DNA of 36,148 nt from a virus (IMGVR_UViG_3300008255_000266:1-36148), one strand, 5' to 3'; shown: positions 8,942 to 21,860, counted from the first letter of the stretch. Notes: generated by a model not told the origin, from the sequence alone. Made by a program: numbers and translations.

Positions 8942-9508
8942 TCAGTCGAACAGGTCGTCAACCTCTTGCGCGAGGTCGACAACTTCGGTCGGGGCAGGCA
9001 CGTCGGCCTGTACGGCTGCTGGTGCGGGTGCAGCGACGGCAGCGGCAGGAGCCGCAACCGGCGCGGGAGCCTTCGCAGCGGACGCTGGAGCTTCCGGAGC
9101 GTAGTACGCAACGAGCCGCGAGGTCAGGCGAGCGGGATAGTTGTCGTTCGCCGGGATCTCGTCGTCCGTTGCCTGACCGATGCATACGCGCCCAACCAGC
9201 TTGTCGAGGTCAACCCGCACGGCCTTCTCGGACACGCCCAGCTTCAGGGCGAGCAGGAAGGCGTGCAGCCGCTGGAGGCCGAACTTCTGGTCGGACTGAA
9301 GAACGAAGTTGTCCTTCAGACGCTTGCCGTCTTCCGCACCGCCCACAACCTCGAACGAGGCCGTGACCATGCGCTTTCCGCTCCTCGACGTACCGTCGAC
9401 GATCTCGGCGAGCCGGATCGGATAGCGACCCGGCGCAACGTGATCGGTTGATCCCCCACCTTGTGCGGGGGGAGCCCCTGTGAAATCGAAGCTCACAACC
9501 CTTGACAT
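8942..9508 (-). CDS. Single-stranded DNA-binding protein (DUF669-like)
   Basis: VAPGRY...SRSGKRMVTASFEV, Ala/Pro linker, acidic C-terminus EVDDLFD; adjacent to the Sak4-like ATPase. Confidence 0.75.
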   Translation of the reverse strand: MSRVVSFDFTGAPPAQGGGSTDHVAPGRYPIRLAEIVDGTSRSGKRMVTASFEVVGGAEDGKRLKDNFVLQSDQKFGLQRLHAFLLALKLGVSEKAVRVDLDKLVGRVCIGQATDDEIPANDNYPARLTSRLVAYYAPEAPASAAKAPAPVAAPAAAVAAPAPAAVQADVPAPTEVVDLAQEVDDLFD

Positions 9509-9550: not shown

Positions 9551-11245
9551 TCAACCGAGGATGAACGTCTGCTCAAGAACCTCGTCTGGCCGTTCCGCGC
9601 CCGGTCGGGCGAGAAGGAACTTCAGCAGCCCCGCCAGCGACGGGTTGCGAATGATAGGCGGAACATCCTGCCCCGGTACAGCCCTCGCCTTCGTGACATA
9701 CATCGCGTGCGGACCGACACGGAGTTGGCGCTCCCACCCGTCAACGCTATGCTCGACGGACAGCCGCCCGACGAGGAGCATGGATGGTAGCAGGGCCTGA
9801 AGCGCCGCTGGGGATGTGTCCGGGCCGAGGGTGACGGGTCCAGCCCCACCCTCGTCGCCGCCGCCGCCAAACTTGCGCTCCTGTGCGATCCAGATGGTGT
9901 GTTGCTTGAGCGTGCGGAAGCGGTAGACAAGCTCTCCAACAAGTCGCCCGATCTTGCCCCATTCTTGGAGCGAGATGACGTGCGGATCGACGTCGAGGTC
10001 TCGCTCTTTGATTGTTTTCCGCTTCGCGAGTTCAGTCATCGCCGTCAGGCTGTCGATCGCTACCCATTGATATGGGTGATCGGACTTCATGAGGAACCAG
10101 TAGATCGCGTCGACAGCATCCCACGTCTCAACCGGAACGATATCGATCCGGTTGGCTTGGTCCTGCAGAACGAACGTACCGCCTTCGATCTGAGGCACGT
10201 CGATCACGAGGCCGCGTCCTGGCATCGTGCCAAGAAGCGTCGTCTTTCCAGTGTTGTGGTTCCAGAACCCCTCGGCGAGATAGTTCTCGTAAACAGGGAC
10301 GTGCATGTCGTAATAAACGCCGACACGGTTTATGGTTATAGCGGACACCACCAGAGGATAGACGCATGCCGAAAGATTCACCGAGACCCTCTCGTCAACT
10401 TGGCCTTCCAACAGATGAACTGCGCCGATGCTTGTCTCTAGGATGGAGCGTGAGCGAGATGGCACAGCACTTTGGCTGCTCGTATAGTGGGGTTGCAAAC
10501 GCACTCGAACGAGCGGACCTAAAGCATCTTGGATTGAAGGCACCTCGTCCCGAACGAAACAAGTTCTGGAAGGGAGGGAAACCGTGGACCGACGTCGACG
10601 GTTATGTGTGGGTTCGGGGCGAAGACCCAAATCATCCTTATACACCACGCGGGTTCGTTCGCGAGCATCGCCTTGTGATGGAGAGAGTTCTCGGAAGATA
10701 CCTTCTTCCAACCGAGGTAGTTGACCATCGGGACGGGAACAGGGCAAACAACGCTCCCGAGAACCTTCGCCTGTTTGCGAGTAACGGAGAGCACCTTCGT
10801 GAGACGCGGAAAGGGAAGTGCCCGAACTGGACTCCCGAGGGGTTTGCCCGCATGAAAGCCGCTGCCCAACGGAAACACGACGCAGCGGAAGCCAGACGCC
10901 TTCAGCAGTCAGGAAACGATGCTCCGCTGTTGCCGTGATACAGCGTCCATCGGATAGCGTAACGTCGAATAGCTCTTCGACTCCTTTCAGGAAGGCATAA
11001 GTAGCCGTCGCTGCTACTCGATCGCCCGTCGCCGGATCAATAGACCAGACGCGAAACGGTTTCCCGCTTGCGGCAAGGTCATCAATACGATGATTGCCGT
11101 CCGGTCCTTGAATGATGGTTTCGGGTGCTACGCAGCCCCCTTTTCCGTAGATGCAGATACCGAACGCTGCTTGCGCCGGTTTGCCGGGTTTGTATACTCC
11201 CGCGAGGGATGCACCCGTCTTTCCGTTGGTTGCTGGATTAGTCAC
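9551..11245 (-). CDS. Sak4-like AAA_24 P-loop ATPase (annealing/recombination), interrupted by an intein
   Basis: Removing residues 38-331 restores Walker A IYGKGG|TGKTT; Walker B VAIDSLT; spliced product about 270 aa. Confidence 0.85.
   Translation of the reverse strand: MTNPATNGKTGASLAGVYKPGKPAQAAFGICIYGKGGCVAPETIIQGPDGNHRIDDLAASGKPFRVWSIDPATGDRVAATATYAFLKGVEELFDVTLSDGRCITATAEHRFLTAEGVWLPLRRVSVGQRLSCGQTPRESSSGTSLSASHEGALRYSQTGEGSRERCLPCSRPDGQLPRLEEGIFRELSPSQGDARERTRVVYKDDLGLRPEPTHNRRRRSTVSLPSRTCFVRDEVPSIQDALGPLVRVRLQPHYTSSQSAVPSRSRSILETSIGAVHLLEGQVDERVSVNLSACVYPLVVSAITINRVGVYYDMHVPVYENYLAEGFWNHNTGKTTLLGTMPGRGLVIDVPQIEGGTFVLQDQANRIDIVPVETWDAVDAIYWFLMKSDHPYQWVAIDSLTAMTELAKRKTIKERDLDVDPHVISLQEWGKIGRLVGELVYRFRTLKQHTIWIAQERKFGGGGDEGGAGPVTLGPDTSPAALQALLPSMLLVGRLSVEHSVDGWERQLRVGPHAMYVTKARAVPGQDVPPIIRNPSLAGLLKFLLARPGAERPDEVLEQTFILG
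10253..11134 (-). mobile_element. Class 1 intein (294 aa) inserted in Walker A
   Basis: N-terminal CVAPETII, block B ITATAEHRFL, blocks F/G VYYDMHVPVYENYLAEGFWNHN, +1 residue Thr. Confidence 0.92.
10366..10938 (+). CDS. HNH homing endonuclease with N-terminal HTH, nested antisense inside the intein
   Basis: GAGG RBS; HTH WSVSEMAQHFGCSYSGVANAL; NKFWKGG...DGYVWV; EHRLVME...VDHRDGNRANNAPENL. Confidence 0.9.
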   Translation: MPKDSPRPSRQLGLPTDELRRCLSLGWSVSEMAQHFGCSYSGVANALERADLKHLGLKAPRPERNKFWKGGKPWTDVDGYVWVRGEDPNHPYTPRGFVREHRLVMERVLGRYLLPTEVVDHRDGNRANNAPENLRLFASNGEHLRETRKGKCPNWTPEGFARMKAAAQRKHDAAEARRLQQSGNDAPLLP

Positions 11246-12302
11246 TGATCGCCTCCTTGGGCGTTGTTTCCTCGTCGCGTTGTCCGCTCTTTTCGTAATA
11301 CAGACGAATCAAATCATCGGGATCCCCGCCCGTGATTACCGCCTCGCACAAACGCTCGTACGGGCAGTATGTGCAGTCGCGTGAAAGGGACCGTACCGGG
11401 CGGCTGACGCCGTGCTTCCATTCGAGCGTGCGTGCCCGGATACGCGCCGCTGTCACGACGTAATCCTCAAGAAGAAGATCGGGCGACGCTACGATGACGT
11501 GTTCCATACGAGGGAAGAATACCTCAAGCTCACGCGGCTCAAGATGCTCGCGCATGTCGTTGTAATCCGCCGGGTCAAGTCCCTGTTCCTTGATCGCCAA
11601 CTCGAACACGGGCCACGTGGAGTCGAGGTTCTTGGCGCGGCTGATGTCGCCGTTCTTGAGAATGTAGGGGAACGATGGTTCCTTCGTCCGCAGGTAGTTC
11701 CACAGCGTCCCGTCAATCAGCAGCCCCTTCGCTTCGAACAGGGCCGCCGCGTACAGGAGCGTCTGCATGTCGCGGATGCGCACGCGCGAGTCGGGCACGT
11801 TCACCGTACTCTTGTGCTCAACGAGGAACATGAGGTCGCGCAAGCGGTCGCGCAGTACAAGGTCGATGATGGACCGGGACTCAACGCCCTGGATGATCGG
11901 CGTCGAAATCCATTCCTCAACCATGATCACGTCATACCGCTCGGCGTCACCCTTGCCCCGTGCCCGGTAGTATCGCTCGGCGATCCGGCACACGACGTCC
12001 ATGAGGCCGAAGTATTCCTGGGCGAGGGCCTCGTCACCGGCAAAGAAGGCTGTGTTGCCCGCCGCCGTGGTTTCGGCCCCGCGCCGCTCAACCAGCTCTG
12101 AGAGTGCCGTGACGTGGGACTCGTCTGCGCCGCGCCCCGTCTTGAGTCCGGTGTAGTAGGTTGCGAGATATTCGTGCAGGAGGATGCCCCGTTGCGGAGC
12201 GAGGTCCTTTACGCGCTGACGGAGTTTGTCGATGTATGAGAAGCTGTATCGCTGCTCACAGCGTTGCCACGCTTGGTAGGCCGAAAGCGAAATCGTGAAC
12301 AA
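11238..12302 (-). CDS. Cas4/RecB-like PD-(D/E)XK exonuclease with putative Fe-S cluster
   Basis: N-terminal SAYQAWQRC, GILLHEYL, IDLV...VEHKS, QTLLY and C-terminal CTYCPYERLC. Confidence 0.85.
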   Translation of the reverse strand: MFTISLSAYQAWQRCEQRYSFSYIDKLRQRVKDLAPQRGILLHEYLATYYTGLKTGRGADESHVTALSELVERRGAETTAAGNTAFFAGDEALAQEYFGLMDVVCRIAERYYRARGKGDAERYDVIMVEEWISTPIIQGVESRSIIDLVLRDRLRDLMFLVEHKSTVNVPDSRVRIRDMQTLLYAAALFEAKGLLIDGTLWNYLRTKEPSFPYILKNGDISRAKNLDSTWPVFELAIKEQGLDPADYNDMREHLEPRELEVFFPRMEHVIVASPDLLLEDYVVTAARIRARTLEWKHGVSRPVRSLSRDCTYCPYERLCEAVITGGDPDDLIRLYYEKSGQRDEETTPKEAISD

Positions 12303-12357: not shown

Positions 12358-13752
12358 TCAAGTAAGTATTTCGGCGTGTTCGGGGCACAACCAACCGGAT
12401 GCCGTCTTGGCAGGAACTTCGTCGCAGCCAATGATCTCGCACACCTGTTCGGTTGTGGCGAACGGGCCACCCCTGAACTGATACTCGGCGTGGCCTATAC
12501 GTTGACGGGAGAGCTCGACGTACTCGGGCATGAGGTCGATTCCCACGAACCGGAAGCCGGATAGGACCGCCGCCTTGCCCGTCGACCCGGAGTCCATGAA
12601 TGGGTCGAGTATGACGCCGCCAGGAGGGGTAATGAGCGTGCAGAGATACCGCATGAGGTCGAACGGCTTCACTGTCGGGTGGTTGTTCCGCCCGCCGCGT
12701 GTACGCCCCGCACCCGCGCGAGGTGATTCCAGGCCCGCCGTACCGTCCTCGCGATCGGTAACGCTACCCGGCGTCAGGACCGGGCCATCAAGCCCTTCGT
12801 CGCGGTCCGTGGCGTCGGCCTTCGGGCAGTAGAAGAAACGCGTCACACTTCCAGTATCACCATAACCCAGTTTGGCATCCATCCTGACGCGACTGGGCAT
12901 AAACCCAACGATACCAGGAACGCCGGAGCTTGAAATACTACTTGCACTACTATTTGCACTACTACTTTCGGGGAACCCTTCAAGCACATCGTCGCTCCCA
13001 TCGTGGATCAAGTTCGCTGGCCAGCGGCCTTGATTACTTCCTCTGCCACCCCACCGCGCGTTTTTGGAGTATGTGTCTTGGGCGTAAACTAACCCCTCGC
13101 TTTTTGCTGGTTTACGAGAGGTATCATCTCCTGATTCAATCCGGCTCGCATCGATGTTCAACGCACCCGTTCCGTACTTGAGCACGTTCGCGACTACCGT
13201 ACCCTCGAGTGGTTTTCGGGCAACGATGATTGGCTCCCAGGCAGGCTTCATGGCCGTGCCCCATCCGTCCCATTGGACAGCTTCTGGGGTGGTGGGAGTT
13301 GTAATGTCTGTCTCCGTGCGAAGAATCTCGTAGGATTCTGCCGCCGTAGTACGCGCTGCCGCATGTCCACGAGCAGTTCCAGTCAGCCGTTGCTTACCGA
13401 TGACCTCTCGCTCCACCCCCGCCACTTTATCAATCGCTTTGCCCACATCCAACGACTTCGGAAACCCGCTTCCGTAAACCCACATGATCGTGTCGCGAAT
13501 CTCCCACCCAGCATCCTCGATCGCAACCATGAGCCGATGAAAGGTTCGTGTACCACCGAACGCGAGCATGTGCGTACCAGGTTTCGCTACCCGCAACGCC
13601 TCGCGCCAGAACGCCACACCGGGCACGCCATGATCCCAATCTTTGCCCATGAATCCCAAACCATATGGCGGATCTGTCACGATGGCATCCACAGAATCTG
13701 CCTGGAGTTCGGGCATGACCTCAAGACAATCGCCTGTATGCAAATCGAACAT
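12358..13752 (-). CDS. N6-adenine/N4-cytosine DNA methyltransferase, beta class; SAM motif altered
   Basis: IVTDPPY, HPTVKP, LDPFMDSGSTG; start overlaps the polymerase stop (TGATG). Confidence 0.85.
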   Translation of the reverse strand: MFDLHTGDCLEVMPELQADSVDAIVTDPPYGLGFMGKDWDHGVPGVAFWREALRVAKPGTHMLAFGGTRTFHRLMVAIEDAGWEIRDTIMWVYGSGFPKSLDVGKAIDKVAGVEREVIGKQRLTGTARGHAAARTTAAESYEILRTETDITTPTTPEAVQWDGWGTAMKPAWEPIIVARKPLEGTVVANVLKYGTGALNIDASRIESGDDTSRKPAKSEGLVYAQDTYSKNARWGGRGSNQGRWPANLIHDGSDDVLEGFPESSSANSSASSISSSGVPGIVGFMPSRVRMDAKLGYGDTGSVTRFFYCPKADATDRDEGLDGPVLTPGSVTDREDGTAGLESPRAGAGRTRGGRNNHPTVKPFDLMRYLCTLITPPGGVILDPFMDSGSTGKAAVLSGFRFVGIDLMPEYVELSRQRIGHAEYQFRGGPFATTEQVCEIIGCDEVPAKTASGWLCPEHAEILT

Positions 13753-16157
13753 CACGCCCACGTCGCACCAACTTTCAAGTCCGCCACGATGGGCACGGGC
13801 ACGGTGATGCCAAAAGCAGCCGTATCCACGTGTTCCATCGTCCATTTCAACAGGTACTGCGCCCGGTCCGCGTCGCGCTCGGAAACGTCAATCAGAATCG
13901 AGTCGTGTACCTGACCGATGATCACGGCATCGAGACTTTCCTCACGCAACCGTGCGTTGGTTTGCACCATCGCCAGAAGCGTTAGGTCCGACGCCGTTGA
14001 CTGGATCGGCGTATTGATCGCCGCATTGACGTCGGACGAGTTGGCAAACTGCCGTCGCCTCCCGAACGGTGTCACTGTGAACCCGCGTATCTCGGCGTCT
14101 CGACGCGCCCGCTCATGCCACGGCGGTAGTGCCGTGTACAGGCGGAAAAACGCCCTGTGTCCTTCTATGGCCTCTTGCTCGGTCAGGAGCAGGCCGTAGG
14201 TGCGACGGGCGTATTCGCGGAACCCCGGCGGTTGCATCCCGAAAGAGAGGCCGAAGTTGAATCCCTTGGCCCCCTGGCGGTCTTCCTTCGTCACCATCGC
14301 CTCAAACTCGGCGCGGCGCAGCATGAACGCGTCCAGGTCGATTGCGCCTCCGCGCTGGGCAATCATGAACGCCGCCGTCAGTTTGTGCAGGTCCTGCCCC
14401 TCGATAAATGCCTGAAGCATCGTTCGTTCGTGCGCGATCCAGGCGATCATGCGCAACTCGATCTGGCTGAAGTCACCGGACACGATCAGCCGCCCGGCGG
14501 GTGCGCGCACCATCTCGCGGAAGGCGACGTCGCTGGTGTTGCGGGGCGTGACTTGCAACGAGCCACCCATCTCAACCTCGGCGGACAGCCGCCCCGTGCG
14601 CGTGCCAGTCATTCTGTAGATCGTGTGCAACCTTCCGTCGCGTTGCCGGGTCAGTAGCGTGGTCCACGGTGTGAGGTACGTGCCCAGTAGCTTCGATTCC
14701 TTGCGGCAGCGGAGGATCGCCTTGACCTGCGGGTACCGGATTATGGACGTTAACGCGTCCTTGTTGGACGACTGCAGGTCTATTCCGAGGGCATTCTTCA
14801 GGTATTCTCTGGTTCTTAACGGTGAATTGGCCAGTTTGGCTGCTTGGAGTGGTGTTACCCCGATCAGGTCCGCGAGCTCCTCGGCAGCAGCATTGTGTCG
14901 CGTGTGCGCGCTCGCTGTCTCGACGGCAAGCAGATCCCCGTCGATCGGAACGCCGACGTAGGCGGCACGCAACAGGACCGGCAGCACAGGCAACAGAAGC
15001 TGCGCGTGCAACCGCTTGATCGCATCGCGGAATACCGGGTCCTCGAGATTAATAGCACGAATGAGGCCCTCAAACAGGAGCAGCGTCGCTCTCGTGTCGG
15101 CAGCGTTATACGAGAGCAAGTCCTGCCATTCCGACGCCGTGGAGGGGCGTGTGGTGCGCAGGTGGCCCTTCCACCCCGGTTCAACCCCGCCGTACTTTAC
15201 CGCCAGGGCCTCGAGGTTCTTGGGCTGTGTCTCGTCAAGCAGGTGCCCGAGGATCATGGTGTCACCCGCCCGCCGAACTTTGATCCTGTAGTGGTGAAGC
15301 CACATGCGATCCGACATAGCGTTGTGCATCACAACAGGGCACGTGATCAACAAAGCCGCGAGCGCGTCCGCAATCGCTGGTGGAGGCGGGAAGGCAAGGG
15401 CAACAGAACGAACGTTGCCTTCGATACGACCCGAAACAGAGATCGAGTAAACCTCAGCCCCCGGTGTCCACGGCCATGTGGGTCCATCTGTACCCGCCGT
15501 CCACTCGAGATCAACCGCCAGCACCTTTGCCGATCCTAGCTCCCACAAGAGGTTGACGATGTTATCCACGTCAACGCCGTACGGATCAAACAGAACAGCC
15601 GTGTCACCTGATGCCAGCGCGGGCGTACCGTTCGCCATCTTTGCATAGTGCTTCATGTTCTCGACGAGCGGTTCCATGTTCTTCGCTCGCTCGTACAGGA
15701 CCGCCGCCGGGTGATAGGTCGCGACGATGGGTACGTCGATGTGCAGACCCTTGCGGGGTGGGAGCACCTTGCCGCGCGATGCTGCCATCTTCTTCGCCCC
15801 GGTCAGCGCCTCCATAGCCGCGTTGCCGAGGCAGACAATGAGCTTCGGCTTGACCCTCTCGATCTCCTCGAGAAGGTAGGGCAAGCAGGTGTCCGCTTCG
15901 GTGCGTGACGGCGTGCGGTTCTGAGGAGGCCTGCATTTTACGACGTTCGAGATGTACACGTCCGCTCGCGTCAGGCCTGCCTGGTTGAGTACGTCGCTCA
16001 GAACCTGCCCGGCTGCACCAACGAAAGGACGTCCGTGCTTTTCCTCGTCCGCCCCCGGCGCTTCACCAACAAGAAGTATCCGCGACCCGTCAGCCCCCTC
16101 CCCCTTCAAACAAACTCGGGAGGTTGTCAGGTGAAGCGGGCAGCGCGTACAGGACAT
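13752..16157 (-). CDS. polA: Family A DNA polymerase with N-terminal family-4 uracil-DNA glycosylase and 3'-5' exonuclease domains
   Basis: UDG motifs CTRCPL, GEAPG, GRPFVG, NVVKCRPP and TYHPA; exonuclease VDLEW; polymerase motifs TGRLS, DFSQIELR, RQGAKGFNFG and VHDS; AAGGA RBS before ATG 16157. Confidence 0.92.
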   Translation of the reverse strand: MSCTRCPLHLTTSRVCLKGEGADGSRILLVGEAPGADEEKHGRPFVGAAGQVLSDVLNQAGLTRADVYISNVVKCRPPQNRTPSRTEADTCLPYLLEEIERVKPKLIVCLGNAAMEALTGAKKMAASRGKVLPPRKGLHIDVPIVATYHPAAVLYERAKNMEPLVENMKHYAKMANGTPALASGDTAVLFDPYGVDVDNIVNLLWELGSAKVLAVDLEWTAGTDGPTWPWTPGAEVYSISVSGRIEGNVRSVALAFPPPPAIADALAALLITCPVVMHNAMSDRMWLHHYRIKVRRAGDTMILGHLLDETQPKNLEALAVKYGGVEPGWKGHLRTTRPSTASEWQDLLSYNAADTRATLLLFEGLIRAINLEDPVFRDAIKRLHAQLLLPVLPVLLRAAYVGVPIDGDLLAVETASAHTRHNAAAEELADLIGVTPLQAAKLANSPLRTREYLKNALGIDLQSSNKDALTSIIRYPQVKAILRCRKESKLLGTYLTPWTTLLTRQRDGRLHTIYRMTGTRTGRLSAEVEMGGSLQVTPRNTSDVAFREMVRAPAGRLIVSGDFSQIELRMIAWIAHERTMLQAFIEGQDLHKLTAAFMIAQRGGAIDLDAFMLRRAEFEAMVTKEDRQGAKGFNFGLSFGMQPPGFREYARRTYGLLLTEQEAIEGHRAFFRLYTALPPWHERARRDAEIRGFTVTPFGRRRQFANSSDVNAAINTPIQSTASDLTLLAMVQTNARLREESLDAVIIGQVHDSILIDVSERDADRAQYLLKWTMEHVDTAAFGITVPVPIVADLKVGATWA

Positions 16158-16181
16158 CGGGGATCCTTTCGGGGTAGTGGA

Positions 16182-16205
16182 AGGGGCGGGGTTTCCCTCG
16201 CCCCT
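16182..16205 (-). terminator. GC-rich hairpin with GAAA tetraloop between DUF932 and polA (terminator or processing site)
   Basis: AGGGGCG-AGG-GAAA-CCC-CGCCCCT; no clear U-tract follows. Confidence 0.45.
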
Positions 16206-16222
16206 CGAGCGTATGCCTGGTG

Positions 16223-17185
16223 TTACCGGGTTGTGACCGGCTGCTTGAAACCAGCGATTTCGGAGAGCACCTTGAAGGCGTCCTTCTTGAACCAGGCGCT
16301 CGGTCCGTCGATGGCGTTCTGTACTCGCGTGGCCTTCGAGGTGATGCGGATCTTGTGGTCCGCGTACCCGGTGATGGCGTTCGCGAGGGCGTAGGCAGTC
16401 TCGCCGGAGTGTTCCCGTTCCTCGTTGTATACGGCGAGGAAGGATTCGATGGAGTGCCGTCGCTGCGTGGGCGTGGCATCGTCGAGCGGCCCGAACATGG
16501 CCTCCTGTACCTTGGTCACGTCGGCCTCGGTCGTCTTGACGGCGGCGAGGGCGGTCATCCATTCCTCGGGCTTGCGGTGCTCGAGGGTTGTCAGGGCGAG
16601 GGCGGCGCGTGCAGCAGCCATCTGGCTACCGATGTCGCCCGCGTGCATGATGCTGGCCGCTGCCCGTCCGCTGGTTGCGGCCATGAGGGTGTTGTTGCAG
16701 ACAACCCGGATCTGGGTGGCGCGGATGGTCAACGCCTGACTTCCGTCGTGGCTGGTCGTCGCGAGCATGTACCGTTTGTAACTGTCGCCCGCGATGGTTG
16801 CGCCTTCGGGCATCTCGGCGAGCATCCAGACCTTGCTGCCGCCGAAGAGCGTCCCAGCAGTGTTGTACAGAAGCATACCGTCCTGCACCAGGCTGTCGAG
16901 GAAGGAGAAGGCGTCGCTGTTCTGAATTGGCTTGTAGCGGGACCGGACAACCCCGAGCACCTTCTCATCGATATCGCGAGTCACGCCCCGGAAGTCGGGG
17001 ATTGCCATGCCGTTCGCGCCGAAGATCGGCTCGAGGGTGACATCCCAGTCGATGCGGGCGAGCTGTGCCGCCTCTTTCGATGTCACGGCGGAGGCAACCT
17101 TGACGCCTTCACCGTGCCAGGGGTCCGCGCCCGCATAGAACATGCTGGCAACCCCGTCTTCTTTGATTTCGAGTTCTGCTGGCAT
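16223..17185 (-). CDS. DUF932 family phage/plasmid protein (TIGR03299-like)
   Basis: PWHGEG, LGVVRSRYKPIQN, TAGTLFGG and TSHDGS...RVVCNNTL; GAGGAG RBS. Confidence 0.85.
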   Translation of the reverse strand: MPAELEIKEDGVASMFYAGADPWHGEGVKVASAVTSKEAAQLARIDWDVTLEPIFGANGMAIPDFRGVTRDIDEKVLGVVRSRYKPIQNSDAFSFLDSLVQDGMLLYNTAGTLFGGSKVWMLAEMPEGATIAGDSYKRYMLATTSHDGSQALTIRATQIRVVCNNTLMAATSGRAAASIMHAGDIGSQMAAARAALALTTLEHRKPEEWMTALAAVKTTEADVTKVQEAMFGPLDDATPTQRRHSIESFLAVYNEEREHSGETAYALANAITGYADHKIRITSKATRVQNAIDGPSAWFKKDAFKVLSEIAGFKQPVTTR

Positions 17186-17221
17186 CCTGTTTCTCCTCTG
17201 AGGTCAACTGCCTCAATGCAA

Positions 17222-17257
17222 ACAATACGAGGTCGTTGCCTATGTGTCAAGTCAATC
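17222..17257 (-). promoter_or_regulatory. Sigma70-like promoter for DUF932
   Basis: TTGACA-17 nt-TATTGT; shares the 15-mer GATTGACTTGACACA with the site at 841-855. Confidence 0.7.
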
Positions 17258-18000
17258 TAGCGGTGCCCGACGATCCACAGAAGATCGTCGGGTTCAAGAA
17301 ACGGAATACACTTCGCCTCGTAGACGGAGTCAAGGTCCACGCCGCCGATGGACCCCGTAATCCGCGTGTCGTATTTGTGTCCGGAGGGCACCAGGCGGCA
17401 GTAGGCAGGCCAGAACGGTGGTGCCCACATGTTCAGCCGAGAGATCGGGTCCGCGCCGACAACGACGCCAAGCACAGGCAAGTCCGTGCGTCCCTCGCTA
17501 AGCAAACCGACCAGGATACCGGCAAGGCTCATGGCGCTGCCTACCGGGACTACAACACGCTTCACCTCAGCGGGGATGTTCACGACCTCCTCGGCGGTGG
17601 CCGTGACAGCTTCCTCACACTCCATCCCGAACGGAACGTATGACCAACCGCGCTCGCGCGCGTCCTCACGGGAGCGCTTGATGAGCACGCTGTTATATCC
17701 GGGTATGACCGGGACGCGGCACGCTCCCGCTTCCTCGGCCTGTAGAATCTCAGGACCGGGAGCGCCGTTAGGAGTGAAGATCCGGCACGGGATCCCCAGG
17801 TGCTGGGCGAGACGCGCAACGATCATGCACTGGGGGCTAGACCGGCTCCCTGCCGTCACCACACCGCGCCTCTCACGTTCCATCAGCGTCCACGCAGTCC
17901 GTACCTTGCCGCCGCGCACACCGGCAACCTCGAACAGGTCGTCTCGTTTCAGCCAGACGTTGCCGAAGGACGCCGCACGGAGTTCAACCGGCGTGGTCAT
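17257..18000 (-). CDS. Fold-type II PLP-dependent enzyme (PALP; ACC deaminase/D-Cys desulfhydrase-like)
   Basis: TPVE...VWLKRDDL...GGKVR (PLP lysine), VVPVGSAMSLAGI, LDSVYEAK; ATGA-coupled to the MTase. Confidence 0.85.
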   Translation of the reverse strand: MTTPVELRAASFGNVWLKRDDLFEVAGVRGGKVRTAWTLMERERRGVVTAGSRSSPQCMIVARLAQHLGIPCRIFTPNGAPGPEILQAEEAGACRVPVIPGYNSVLIKRSREDARERGWSYVPFGMECEEAVTATAEEVVNIPAEVKRVVVPVGSAMSLAGILVGLLSEGRTDLPVLGVVVGADPISRLNMWAPPFWPAYCRLVPSGHKYDTRITGSIGGVDLDSVYEAKCIPFLEPDDLLWIVGHR

Positions 18001-19379
18001 TTCTCTTCCTCTGGCAAGCCGCACGCGTCAGACGCCGCACGCGGGTCGCCCTTGACGAACACGTAAACATACTGGTGGGTGTTCCCTAACTTGCGGCTGA
18101 CCTTGAACTGCGCGGACGTGCGCACGGGCAAAGAGCCGATCATGGTGACAAGCACGGCCTGGTTGTACAGGCGCAGGCCCGCAGCCTCGAAGGCGTTGAT
18201 CGTGACGTCGGGGAAGCGCGCATACGTCCCATCCGGTAGGCGATAGTCACCAACAACGATGGCAGCGAAGCGATCGTTCGCGAGCGTGGCGCAGGACGCT
18301 GCGATGATCTCGAAGTAGACCTGGTTGAAGTCCTCGCGGCTCATGGCAGAAAGGTCGCGCGGGTCATCGCTGTACTTCTCGAGGTTGCCGTATGGAGGGC
18401 ACGTCATAACGAAGTCGGACTGAAAGCCCGGAAGGACAGCGGTCGGTATCGTTGCCGCGTCCGCGTGTATCCACTGAGGACGCGGTCGTGTGCCACAGAT
18501 CGCCACCGCCTGTTCCCGGTTTGCCGCGATCTGCGGACCGGAAAGCTCGAAGCCGACGTATCGCCGGTCAAGCATGGCCGCAACGATCCCGCGCACCGAG
18601 CCGCCCGCGAACGGATCAAGGACCACCCCGCCGATGGGCGAGAACCACGTGTACAAGAGCTCACACAGCACGGGGTCGAAGATGCTCGTACCCGCAACCG
18701 CGCCGATCTCCTCGTTCTTGCGGTCATCGTATGGACCGGGAGTCATCCCGAACACGAGCCCGCCCTTGTGGGAGGCTGTCTGCTTCACACGTCCAGACGC
18801 GCGTTGCTTCTGGATGGCGTCGAGTTGAGGCTGCGAACTGAACGCCGGGTTGTACGCGGGATCCTTCTTCTTGCTCTTCCTATAGTAGGCAACGTCGGAT
18901 ATTCTCCACGTGAGCCCTTTGCTGCCTGCAGGATTGTAGGTTTCCTCTTCCACGCTCTTTTCCTTCTCAATGCGCCGGTAGTGGTCAAACTCGGCAACGT
19001 TGCCCGTAAAGGTCAATCCCTTTGGCGGTGGTTCCCCGTGCTCGTACTCGCCTCGCCCCTTGCGGTAATCCTCAAGCTGAGAGGAGAGCCCCAGGGGATT
19101 GGGGTTCGCGTTGTACCCACGCTGCCACGCGCCGTCGTTTGCAGGGTCGCGCACGGTCCCGTTCGGGACAATGTTCTCGCCGCGCCCGAGCTCAGACTGG
19201 ATACCTAGATGCATCCACGCCTCTTTGCGCTTGCGCCAGTAGCCCTGCTTCACATCGAACACGCTGAACGGAGGAGCGAGCCACTTCTTCGAGAGCTCAC
19301 CTCCGTCGAGCATCACCTTCGTTCCGAACAGGGACGTACCGAACGGGCTGTACTGCTTGTCCAGCGGCGCGCGTGACAT
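17997..19379 (-). CDS. SAM-dependent DNA amino-methyltransferase-like protein
   Basis: TSIFDPVLCE, VLDPFAGGSVRG (SAM binding) preceding MTCPPY; start coupled to the clamp stop. Confidence 0.8.
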   Translation of the reverse strand: MSRAPLDKQYSPFGTSLFGTKVMLDGGELSKKWLAPPFSVFDVKQGYWRKRKEAWMHLGIQSELGRGENIVPNGTVRDPANDGAWQRGYNANPNPLGLSSQLEDYRKGRGEYEHGEPPPKGLTFTGNVAEFDHYRRIEKEKSVEEETYNPAGSKGLTWRISDVAYYRKSKKKDPAYNPAFSSQPQLDAIQKQRASGRVKQTASHKGGLVFGMTPGPYDDRKNEEIGAVAGTSIFDPVLCELLYTWFSPIGGVVLDPFAGGSVRGIVAAMLDRRYVGFELSGPQIAANREQAVAICGTRPRPQWIHADAATIPTAVLPGFQSDFVMTCPPYGNLEKYSDDPRDLSAMSREDFNQVYFEIIAASCATLANDRFAAIVVGDYRLPDGTYARFPDVTINAFEAAGLRLYNQAVLVTMIGSLPVRTSAQFKVSRKLGNTHQYVYVFVKGDPRAASDACGLPEEEK

Positions 19380-20437
19380 CAGGCGCGCAGCAACAGGTAG
19401 AGTCGCCGTGACCCAGCCGCACGTACGAGGGCAATCGTCCCGCCGATTGCCAGGTCGAGGTCGTTGCCGGACGCCGCCTGGATCGCCGTGGTCAGATCGT
19501 CGATACCGAACGACCATGCGCCCACGGCTTCATTCTCAAAGTCGTCCTGATACCCGCCCTGCTGAGCCTCGAGCGTGCTGATGGTCATAACCCCGTTCGC
19601 ACCTACAAGTCGCAGGATTGAGGCGTCGTAGACCTTTGCAGCTGCGATGGCGGTTGTCAGAAGCGCGATGGGTAGACGCACATCCTGCGTAGCCTTCATC
19701 TCGCGGATGGCCTTCATTGTTGGCCATTCCCCGGACATGAGAGGCACGCGCACGACTGACTGGTCGGACGGCGACCGCAACACAAGGGTTCTTCCGAGTA
19801 CCGCGAACTCGACGTTCGGACCGCGCATGATACGCAGGGCTGTGACGAAATCGGTCGCCGGTACAATGACCGTGTGTTTCTCGGGAATGTGCGCCAGGGC
19901 CGGTATGGACACCTCGAGCATGACCGAGACGCCGTTCGTTGCCTGGATCCCTACCTTCCCTCCAGCCGCCGTAACCCTGATCCCCTCAAGGATGGGGTTG
20001 CCGTACGACCGCGCCGCGCACGATGCGGCCAGCGCGACTTCCGCCTTCAGATCATCGAGACAGACGGTGACGAATGGAGGAAGGGACATCAGGGAAGCAT
20101 AGTGCGCCCCTGCTTCGGGATCCTCGCCGCCGATGATACGTAGCGAAGATCGCCGCCGCCCGGAGGTCACAACGACCGCGTTCTGTGGAGAGATGGATAG
20201 CGCCGTCTCGGATCCGGCAAACACGTTCGCCAGCGCCGCGAAGTCCTCCGCGTTGACGGCAACGGTCGCGCCGAGCATGGTCCCGTCTTCAACCATCACT
20301 CCGCACGTCACGTACCCTCCCCTGTACAGAGCGACAGTCCCGCTCTCCGTCGGCATCAGAAGCAACGGGGAGGGAACGAGCTCGATCTTGGCGACCGATG
20401 CTGCGTCGGCCAGACGCTTGAGGGATGTATCACGCAT
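19379..20437 (-). CDS. DNA polymerase III beta sliding clamp homolog
   Basis: About 352 aa; PILEGI, QATNG, TVIVPA and LMSGEWP match DnaN-type motifs; AAGGAG RBS. Confidence 0.75.
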   Translation of the reverse strand: MRDTSLKRLADAASVAKIELVPSPLLLMPTESGTVALYRGGYVTCGVMVEDGTMLGATVAVNAEDFAALANVFAGSETALSISPQNAVVVTSGRRRSSLRIIGGEDPEAGAHYASLMSLPPFVTVCLDDLKAEVALAASCAARSYGNPILEGIRVTAAGGKVGIQATNGVSVMLEVSIPALAHIPEKHTVIVPATDFVTALRIMRGPNVEFAVLGRTLVLRSPSDQSVVRVPLMSGEWPTMKAIREMKATQDVRLPIALLTTAIAAAKVYDASILRLVGANGVMTISTLEAQQGGYQDDFENEAVGAWSFGIDDLTTAIQAASGNDLDLAIGGTIALVRAAGSRRLYLLLRA

Positions 20438-20474
20438 GGAAAGCTCCTTCTGTTTGTCAAGTAAGTCTAACGGT

Positions 20475-21860
20475 TCAGCGTAACAAGTCAACCGCGTACG
20501 AGAGATCCGTTGCCCTGCGTGCGATAGACTGCTTGTTTCTTAGTGCGTCGTACACTTTCACGTCGACCGTTCCAGTCGCGATGAGATGGAAATATGTTAC
20601 TTTTCGTAACTGACCTATGCGGTGTAGCCGGTCCCGCGCCTGGAGGAAGTCGTCAAGACTGAACCCGGTTGAGAAGAAGATGGCAATCGACGCCGCTGTT
20701 AGGTCGATGCCCAGCGACCCCGCCCGGATCTGTACAAGGAGCACGTCGTACTCGCCGTGACGGAACCGCTCGAGTATCGCCGTCCGCTCATGACTGGAAA
20801 CCGACCCATCGAACCGCGCCACGCGCAGCGTTTTCGGTAGCCGAACTTGCATCGCGTCGAGGTCGTGGAGGAAGCGGGCGAACACGACGACCTTCTCGCC
20901 GCCAGCATGAGCGTTCGCAATCAGATCCAGTGCTACGTCGGCCTTCTCGGTCGATAGGTCGATAGTCTCGCCGCCAACCTCGCGAGCGAACCCGGACGTA
21001 ATCTGTTGAAGTCGAAGGAGCAGCGTCAGGACCAGTTGTGCAATCACCGGACGCGGTCCTGCCCCCGTTTGTACCATCGTGATCGCCTTGCGTCTCAGCT
21101 CGTCATAGGTCGCCATAGTGTTGGGTGTAAGTGTGACCGGGATCAGGATGTCCTGTCGCTCGGGCAGGTCGATCGCCTCGGCTTTCGTACACTGAAACGC
21201 TGTCTTCGCCACAATGTCGTGCGCCCCGGTTACGTTCCGATAGCGAATGATCTGCCGCCCCTGGTAGCCTCCCATGACAAGATACGTGTTCTGAAAACTC
21301 GTCCACGACCCGAAGATATTCGGCGAGATGAAGCGAAACATGCTCCACAAATCCTCAAGCCCGTTCGTGACCGGCGTCCCGGTGAGGGCCAGCTTCACTT
21401 TGACGTGCTCTCTGTCACCGAGGATATGAGCGAAGCGAGACTGGCGTGTACCCCGATTCTTGATCCGGTGCGCCTCGTCGATGATCACCGCATCGGGCTC
21501 CCAGCGAAGGACAGCCGCGCGCAAAGGCTCGCGCCAGTAGGATTCGAAGTTACAGATGACGATGGTTGGCACCTTGCGATCGGTCTTCTTGAGCGCCACC
21601 GTCCGATCCTTGATTGTGCCACACCCGGTCAGGTCAACAATCGTGTGAGGTAGACCCACGATACGCGCCTCGCGTTGCCAGACGCCCACTGCGGACAGAG
21701 GGCATACAACGAGCACCCTCTGGCAATCTTGTTCCGTAAGGTGGGCAAGAGCAATACGAGACTTTCCGGTTCCCATCTCCATCCACAGCCCGGCTCTACC
21801 GTTGCGCGCGCGCACGAACTCGAGACCGCGCTTCTGATGGTCATACAGGTCAAAGGACAC
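20475..21860 (-). CDS. SNF2-family helicase
   Basis: MEMGTGKS, IIDEAHRIKN, LTGTP, GSLGIDLT and QARDRLHRIGQ. Confidence 0.92.
   Translation of the reverse strand: MSFDLYDHQKRGLEFVRARNGRAGLWMEMGTGKSRIALAHLTEQDCQRVLVVCPLSAVGVWQREARIVGLPHTIVDLTGCGTIKDRTVALKKTDRKVPTIVICNFESYWREPLRAAVLRWEPDAVIIDEAHRIKNRGTRQSRFAHILGDREHVKVKLALTGTPVTNGLEDLWSMFRFISPNIFGSWTSFQNTYLVMGGYQGRQIIRYRNVTGAHDIVAKTAFQCTKAEAIDLPERQDILIPVTLTPNTMATYDELRRKAITMVQTGAGPRPVIAQLVLTLLLRLQQITSGFAREVGGETIDLSTEKADVALDLIANAHAGGEKVVVFARFLHDLDAMQVRLPKTLRVARFDGSVSSHERTAILERFRHGEYDVLLVQIRAGSLGIDLTAASIAIFFSTGFSLDDFLQARDRLHRIGQLRKVTYFHLIATGTVDVKVYDALRNKQSIARRATDLSYAVDLLR

Follow-up and report, generated by a model that had tools for sequence, protein, structure and literature searches.

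Introduction

How inteins gained their homing endonucleases is a long-standing question. Contiguous inteins with an anti-sense LAGLIDADG or VSR-like endonuclease are already known (Gosselin, Arsenault and Gogarten, bioRxiv 10.1101/2025.01.02.630785); the preprint attributes the inteins of Synechocystis DnaX and of the Chloroflexus SpoVR-like protein to Gorbalenya 1998 and Gogarten 2002. In its accessible portions, the anti-sense layout is called rare and HNH endonucleases are listed in frame only. The dCTP deaminase of cyanophage CL131 carries a canonical intein with an in-frame HNH_3 domain (PMC6293099). The ShiLan domain is an HNH endonuclease concealed out of frame within a phage DNA methylase (Arsenault et al. 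2025, PMC11855218), and I-HmuI is a nicking HNH homing enzyme (PMC3017599). These papers are represented here by the accessible portions of their text. A further candidate precedent (PMC8966425) was set aside, as the "opposite strand" of its accessible text refers to cleavage sites and not to gene layout. Our literature search, with most subscription journals outside its coverage, returned no paper on an antisense HNH gene in a contiguous intein or on a Sak4 intein. The two-strand architecture is already published; relative to the accessible literature, the antisense HNH version and the Sak4-like host are new.

Antisense intein nucleases have so far been treated as rare intermediates. Here we describe an insert in a viral contig whose family has this layout as its normal, selected state and crosses ATPase families. 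We consider it very probable that this 882-bp insert is a two-strand mobile element, combining a self-splicing intein on the minus strand with a homing HTH-HNH nuclease on the plus strand.

Results

The window that we analyzed is a whole contig of 36,148 bp. Among its genes are those for a tape measure protein, a DNA polymerase, a primase-polymerase and a helicase, every one of them on the minus strand; its source is therefore most likely a tailed phage. The interrupted gene, its two exteins and its neighbors are as follows.

9551..11245, minus strand: host gene, predicted Sak4-like (AAA_24) ATPase precursor, 564 aa (Pfam and PHROG matches)
11135..11245, minus strand: N-extein, 37 aa; its last residues, GKGG, are the first half of Walker A
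9551..10252, minus strand: C-extein, 233 aa plus stop; first residues TGKT (PHROG 124)
11238..12302, minus strand: upstream PD-(D/E)XK nuclease gene, overlapping the host start (PDDEXK_1, E = 6e-16)
8942..9508, minus strand: downstream gene with a weak DUF669 match (E = 0.0054), whose product we take to be possibly an ssDNA-binding protein

The host ORF matched Pfam AAA_24 (E = 4.9e-10) and its C-extein matched PHROG 124, Sak4-like ssDNA annealing protein (E = 2.3e-26). By annotation transfer from these profiles, the product is predicted to be a Sak4-like ssDNA annealing ATPase. The predicted spliced protein has 270 aa, and intein-free relatives have about 260 to 290 aa. The original prediction had proposed collecting homologous AAA_24 genes in search of intein-free alleles and further antisense-HNH alleles. 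The former were readily found, as Walker A was unbroken in 112 of 150 C-extein homologs, and the intein-free homolog P0128 has an intact GKGGSGKT; no second AAA_24 host appeared among the family loci listed. Of the intein-free AAA_24 homologs whose Walker A is readable, the 18 closest include 13 with Val or Ala at the +1 position. Since these residues cannot support class 1 splicing, usable homing targets are a minority in AAA_24.

Two AAA_24 relatives (P0273 and P0173), whose N-termini are cut in the gene calls, contain canonical LAGLIDADG inteins whose C-terminal end lies just ahead of the Walker A Thr. These apparently sit just after GK, three residues from the site in our contig and in the same Walker A loop. 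Elsewhere in the contig, the DNA polymerase A gene (13752-16562, minus strand) has a uracil-DNA-glycosylase-superfamily domain fused ahead of the 3'-5' exonuclease. The cluster at 16223-21860 (minus strand), which encodes a DUF932 protein, a PLP-dependent PALP enzyme, a second DNA methylase, a beta-clamp-like protein and an SNF2 helicase, is possibly a DNA-modification module.

The intein interrupts Walker A between GKGG and TGKT and is composed of the following parts.

10253..11134, minus strand: class 1 intein, 294 aa (host residues 38-331), 882-bp insert
10847..11134, minus strand: N-terminal splicing (Hint) region, residues 1-96; block B at 10919-10930
10364..10846, minus strand: linker, residues 97-257, 161 aa, predicted coil (pLDDT about 50)
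10253..10363, minus strand: C-terminal splicing region, residues 258-294 (Asp276, His293-Asn294)

Both Pfam Intein_splicing (E = 2.3e-9, over the curated cut-off) and TIGR01445 (E = 5e-7) matched this region. The splicing residues are C1, T69-x-x-H72 in block B, D276 in block F and H293-N294, followed by Thr at +1; Cys1 and the block B His72 are invariant in 48 aligned members. Class 1 inteins are recognized by an Asp in block F rather than the Cys of class 3. In block F of this intein, Glu283 takes the place of the His found in many relatives. AlphaFold2 modeled both splicing halves at a pLDDT of about 98 and the linker as coil, and the best Foldseek matches were the DnaB and RecA mini-inteins (E = 4e-9 to 6e-7). 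Profiles, catalytic residues and Hint fold thus agree with the prediction of a complete class 1 intein splitting the Walker A motif of a Sak4-like ATPase. On the basis of the motifs, the fold and the presence of the element in the terminase gene of cultured phages, the intein is predicted to splice itself out and restore the Walker A loop of the ATPase.

The linker had been described as about 170 aa of Ser/Arg/Pro-rich sequence with no recognizable domain. Its presence between the splicing halves stands, the length being corrected to 161 aa; 36% of its residues are Ser, Arg or Pro, and a Pfam search of the intein frame gave no nuclease match. With no in-frame nuclease match and a linker predicted as coil, a canonical bifunctional intein is ruled out. 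A fractured gene with a split intein is ruled out as well, since the host is one continuous ORF. The linker is the antisense shadow of the HNH gene.

GC3 in intein codons 1 to 65 is 0.48, against 0.71 to 0.77 in four phage coding regions, which suggests a foreign origin and a recent arrival. A protein search with the whole precursor matched the precursor itself and one mini-intein protein (P0002). The latter is a 684-aa phage protein with precomputed PF14594 and PF14890 matches; its mini-intein, which shares 52% identity with a portion of our contig's splicing domain, has no linker and lies outside any Walker A.

The opposite strand of the intein encodes the nuclease, with the following features.

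10366..10938, plus strand: HTH + HNH endonuclease gene, 190 aa; HNH_3 at residues 101-137
10353..10358, plus strand: ribosome-binding site AGAGGA of the HNH gene
10847..10938, plus strand: dual-coded stretch, HNH C-terminal tail (predicted helix) opposite intein residues 66-96

The plus-strand ORF matched HNH_3 (E = 2.3e-10). Profile searches of both strands, which had been suggested as a check, thereby recovered Intein_splicing on the minus and HNH_3 on the plus strand. The product has the traits of an HNH homing endonuclease: an HNH core with conserved His and Asn residues and a predicted DNA-binding part, the N-terminal portion being helical and HTH-like. It has 431 protein homologs, and H101, H121, N129, N133, N140 and H143 are invariant in 42 aligned relatives. 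The best solved fold was that of I-HmuI (1u3e), a weak match (Foldseek E = 0.018; profile E = 0.012). The GAGG of the ribosome-binding site (10354-10357) lies 8 nt ahead of the ATG, and the frame contains no stop, as expected for the intact antisense gene that had been proposed. That gene had also been called the only convincing one on the plus strand; none of 59 other plus-strand ORFs, a set made up of most of those with at least 100 aa plus one shorter, had a PHROG match at E = 1e-4. Contig pieces from 7 other runs, which cover the region in part, match it without differences.

HNH-based scans listed 216 loci, one of which (L090) is the contig itself; the two large scans covered the best 80 of about 2300 and the best 80 of about 4200 matching stretches (estimates). 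Loci were fetched on HNH similarity alone, and 196 of the 216 listed have a stop-free antisense frame in the phase of our contig. At 90% identity, and with the contig excluded, both intein halves were present in that frame in 142 of 173 clusters among the matches listed, the remainder being 22 without an intein and 9 with one half or a break; the intein models used for this count were seeded from the same loci. By HNH score tier, at least one intein half was found in 103 of the 105 top-scoring clusters, in 42 of 44 and in 6 of 24, again among the matches listed. Pfam Intein_splicing, which is independent of the seeded models, matched 34 of the 46 host ORFs that we chose to represent the range of host types. 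Within this large family, whose size we estimate at thousands of stored stretches, the antisense HNH layout is the norm.

Most insertions (117 of 134 boundaries) lie before an [STC]xK-type Walker A end, 12 lie after GK and 5 are unclassified. Hosts belong to at least 10 types of P-loop ATPase, mostly terminases (about 102 of 128 tree tips, counting unlabelled tips as terminase); the others are AAA_34, FtsH/CDC48-like AAA, DnaX, DnaB, SNF2, AAA_25, ClpX-like, SMC-like and one unassigned ATPase. In trees built with FastTree, whose deep nodes are poorly supported, our element is sister to an element in an AAA_25 helicase-like gene (L091; support 0.955), with 53% identity in Hint and 64% in the HNH core. 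The L091 extein is otherwise dissimilar to our host, and the two target sites have in common the codons for GxGG before and TGK after the insertion point. Host labels change 15 times on the tree; shuffled labels gave at least 23 changes, and the minimum is 10. Across the family, the correlation between Hint and HNH identities is weak (Spearman 0.20).

Several family loci depart from the common pattern. In L124 the two intein halves lie in different ORFs (split or frameshifted), and the intein of L105 reaches about 530 aa, with additional linker sequence in which a second antisense ORF could be concealed. Two loci have open N6/N4 DNA methylase ORFs on the minus strand without an intein (L200:1446-3170 and L208:882-3848), with antisense HNH_3 genes in the same phase (L200:2348-2773 and L208:2363-2830, plus strand). 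These insertions are the antisense counterpart of the ShiLan insertion. The matching FPKSL motif is present in the methylase of our contig (12358-13845), whose frame showed no Pfam HNH.

Public records contain a systematic annotation trap, in that the HNH gene is called and the host gene is truncated or marked as a pseudogene. This was seen despite an open host frame in phage PHS3 (L218), in the Escherichia coli MEI003 prophage (L221) and in the gene calls P0274, P0276 and P0003. A search of annotated phages with the intein frame found no family members, while a search with the HNH frame does find them.

The original prediction had confined the HNH ORF to the space between the splicing halves. 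This does not hold: the stop lies opposite intein residue 66, and the ORF reads through block B. About 30 codons at the end of the HNH gene overlap the splicing domain, block B included, and part of the splicing domain itself is therefore dual-coded. Of 123 family members scored, 95 have an HNH ORF that extends across the block B His. Because HNH codon position 3 stands opposite intein codon position 2, a substitution that is silent in one frame will usually be a coding change in the other. Across the HNH gene of the contig, a stop-free antisense frame arose in 0.2% of codon permutations and in 1.9% of resamplings from genome codon usage.

A Phe followed by I, M, T, N or K in the HNH protein creates a stop in the host frame. 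In 119 HNH homologs, picked by protein similarity alone, 1 of 365 Phe residues is followed by one of these, against 65.8 expected from composition, a contrast inflated by shared ancestry. In 22 non-intein loci the count is 7 of 36, against 9.1 expected. An apparent excess of open frames (141 versus 1.3 expected) was set aside as evidence; the figure is circular, because the loci had been chosen as open.

Since the element of our contig has no close relative, selection was assessed in its relatives, using 20 close pairs of up to 30% divergence that do not include it. Substitutions in the HNH core number 337, 119 and 83 at HNH codon positions 3, 1 and 2, respectively. Synonymous and non-synonymous codons in the core number 260 and 160 in the HNH frame, and 31 and 387 in the intein frame. 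Conversely, the intein frame of the splicing ends gave 53 synonymous to 32 non-synonymous codons in the N-terminal and 115 to 60 in the C-terminal region. In these family pairs, each strand is under purifying selection in its own part, the HNH frame across the linker and the intein frame at the splicing ends; the intein frame of the linker is unconstrained. Stops expected in the phase of our contig number 671, versus 959 and 743 in the other two. Because the universal phase is only slightly more permissive than the others, a single ancient capture probably founded the family.

Cultured phages provide full and empty alleles. In Ymer and PHS3 the element sits within the terminase gene, and seven further Pectobacterium/Dickeya phage records have similar HNH matches at the level of the record; in the main text of the Ymer paper (PMC11445585), as far as it is accessible, the words "intein" and "HNH" are absent. 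Relative to phage AL, which has the precise empty site, PHS3 contains an exact insert of 900 bp between GGAG and SGKS. In the flanks, the 108 upstream bases compared include 2 mismatches and the 180 downstream bases are identical; both phages infect Pseudoalteromonas marina. A second pair is L183 and phage PHB10, which is the empty counterpart of an exact 1008-bp insert. In E. coli, 1 of 783 genomes with a matching terminase region has the element. The PHS3 and Ymer elements share 50 to 56% protein identity, and their terminase C-exteins have no significant BLASTP match to each other. From the patchy distribution and the tree, we infer homing as well as jumps between ATPase genes. For the gene of our own contig, no intein-free DNA allele was found in scans of viral contigs with the AAA_24 host, and no joint skipping the intein was found in the contigs of 8 runs, which cover the site in part.

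Expression signals are enriched across the family. Starts preceded by at least 4 Shine-Dalgarno bases occur in 84 of 121 members, compared with 31.6 for random positions. Antisense sigma-70-like promoters were detected in the last 50 intein codons of 60 of 125 elements (22.4 expected), or of 34 at a match of 10 of 12 (5.6 expected); in the first 50 codons the count was 6, with 4.9 expected. The sigma-70-like promoter match in PHS3 is TTGACA-17-GATAAT. These ribosome sites and promoters make it likely that the antisense HNH gene is expressed from its own signals. The candidate in our contig is weaker.

10308..10342, plus strand: weak candidate promoter in the intein C-terminal codons, TAAACG-17-TATAGC or TCGTAA-17-TATGGT (each 7/12)

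A scan for consensus promoters found no site upstream of the HNH start of the contig, and because the promoter match is weak this copy may be poorly expressed. A subgroup (L089, L138, L150 and L151) has TTGACA promoters with an ATG close behind and no ribosome site upstream of the HNH gene, an arrangement that suggests leaderless translation.

A two-strand composite selfish element had been proposed from this one locus. The layout and phase fixed throughout the family, the opposite selection on the two strands, the enriched antisense promoters and ribosome sites, and the precise pairs of full and empty alleles all speak for it.

Discussion

The element of this contig is real and conserved and, judging from its sequence and that of its relatives, probably functional. 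According to our model, the precursor would splice and free a 270-aa ATPase with a restored Walker A, while the antisense HNH gene would be transcribed from signals within the intein 3' codons. During co-infection, the HNH product would nick the intein-free Walker A allele, and recombination or repair at the nicked allele would copy the whole insert. The weak likeness to I-HmuI makes nicking, instead of double-strand cutting, the likely activity. The family would have been founded when a free-standing HNH gene was captured once, long ago, in reverse orientation; the overlap with block B would then have locked the phase. A broader form of this model, to which we assign an even chance, holds that the element is large in number, ancient and Walker-A-seeking. 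Its nickase would read generic P-loop codons and jump between unrelated ATPase genes, and the layout would be a stable end state of nuclease capture and not a passing intermediate. Under this broader model, the promoter, the ribosome site and the C-terminal helix all lie in splicing-domain codons, and the nuclease would therefore be timed independently of the host gene.

Other explanations deserve consideration. The family may be truly homing and the copy in our contig a dormant passenger, its intein splicing and its HNH unexpressed or without a target. The 7/12 promoter, the absence of an empty allele from the partly covered site in the contigs of 8 runs, and the Val or Ala at +1 in 13 of the 18 closest homologs all point that way. 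On the other hand, the HNH ORF is full length, keeps every conserved residue, has a ribosome site and is free of stops, the low GC3 suggests a recent arrival, and the host bacterium may use other promoters; overall, we regard dormancy as unlikely, while giving it some weight. It is more doubtful still that a free-standing HNH gene merely shelters in a tolerant intein loop and spreads its surroundings by marker exclusion or distant nicking, with the insertion site untargeted. I-HmuI nicks intron-plus targets too (PMC3017599, accessible portion), Hint and HNH identities are loosely correlated, and related antisense HNH genes occur in methylases without an intein (L200 and L208). Nevertheless, in both full/empty pairs the intein and HNH move as one exact unit, phase and layout are constant over at least 10 host types, and the start signals and tail of the HNH gene lie in splicing-domain codons.

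It appears very improbable that the nested HNH has been domesticated and works for the phage, in DNA packaging or recombination or as an antisense control on the host gene, instead of for mobility. HNH proteins assist some terminases, and about 102 of 128 tree tips are terminases or presumed terminases, which would fit such a role; yet the element is missing from phages AL and PHB10, both close relatives of carriers, and it occurs in unrelated hosts, the Sak4-like gene of our contig among them. As for a chance antisense ORF or an assembly artefact, GC-rich genomes yield long shadow ORFs, and this contig has 218 ORFs of at least 60 aa. The 431 homologs, the invariant catalytic residues and the purifying selection in family pairs nevertheless refute both, identical contig pieces from other runs further oppose an artefact, and we give this explanation practically no credence.

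Returning to the two-strand mobile element, the family is a naturally occurring example of coding on both strands, catalytic residues included. The cultured donor and recipient PHS3 and AL, in the marine host P. marina, make splicing, antisense expression and homing directly testable; if the Walker-A-seeking model is true, PHS3 versus AL would be the first direct homing test for an antisense intein nuclease.

How does this element compare with known systems? With canonical LAGLIDADG and HNH inteins it shares the class 1 splicing motifs and the insertion in a conserved motif. In those inteins, however, the nuclease is within the excised protein and is made with the host gene, whereas in our element it has a gene of its own, and the intein, once excised, would bear a predicted unstructured loop. 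Like ShiLan (PMC11855218), the element has an HNH gene nested in a host ORF that remains open and a homing-like distribution. In the accessible text, ShiLan uses an alternate frame, antisense orientation is not mentioned, and there is no intein, so that the insert stays in the host protein. The fractured genes described by Dassa et al. 2009 (PMC2677866, accessible portion) likewise have a separate nuclease gene between intein halves, with short coding overlaps; they differ in having a split intein, three coding regions on the same strand and a GIY-YIG or Vsr-like nuclease. I-HmuI and I-BasI, both intron-encoded, are nicking HNH enzymes, the former being the closest, if weak, solved match (E = 0.012 to 0.018; PMC3017599, accessible portion). 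The closest resemblance in layout is to the inteins of Gosselin 2025, as far as the preprint is accessible: these too are contiguous, with the nuclease as a separate ORF on the opposite strand and with phage ATPases as hosts, the proposed origin is also invasion by a free-standing nuclease, and there are phylogenetic signs of continued transfer. Because its nuclease is HNH_3 and not LAGLIDADG or VSR-like, our element is a variant that belongs to neither described anti-sense type. In contrast to those rare inteins, its family combines an HTH-HNH nuclease with a layout that is normal across at least 10 host types.
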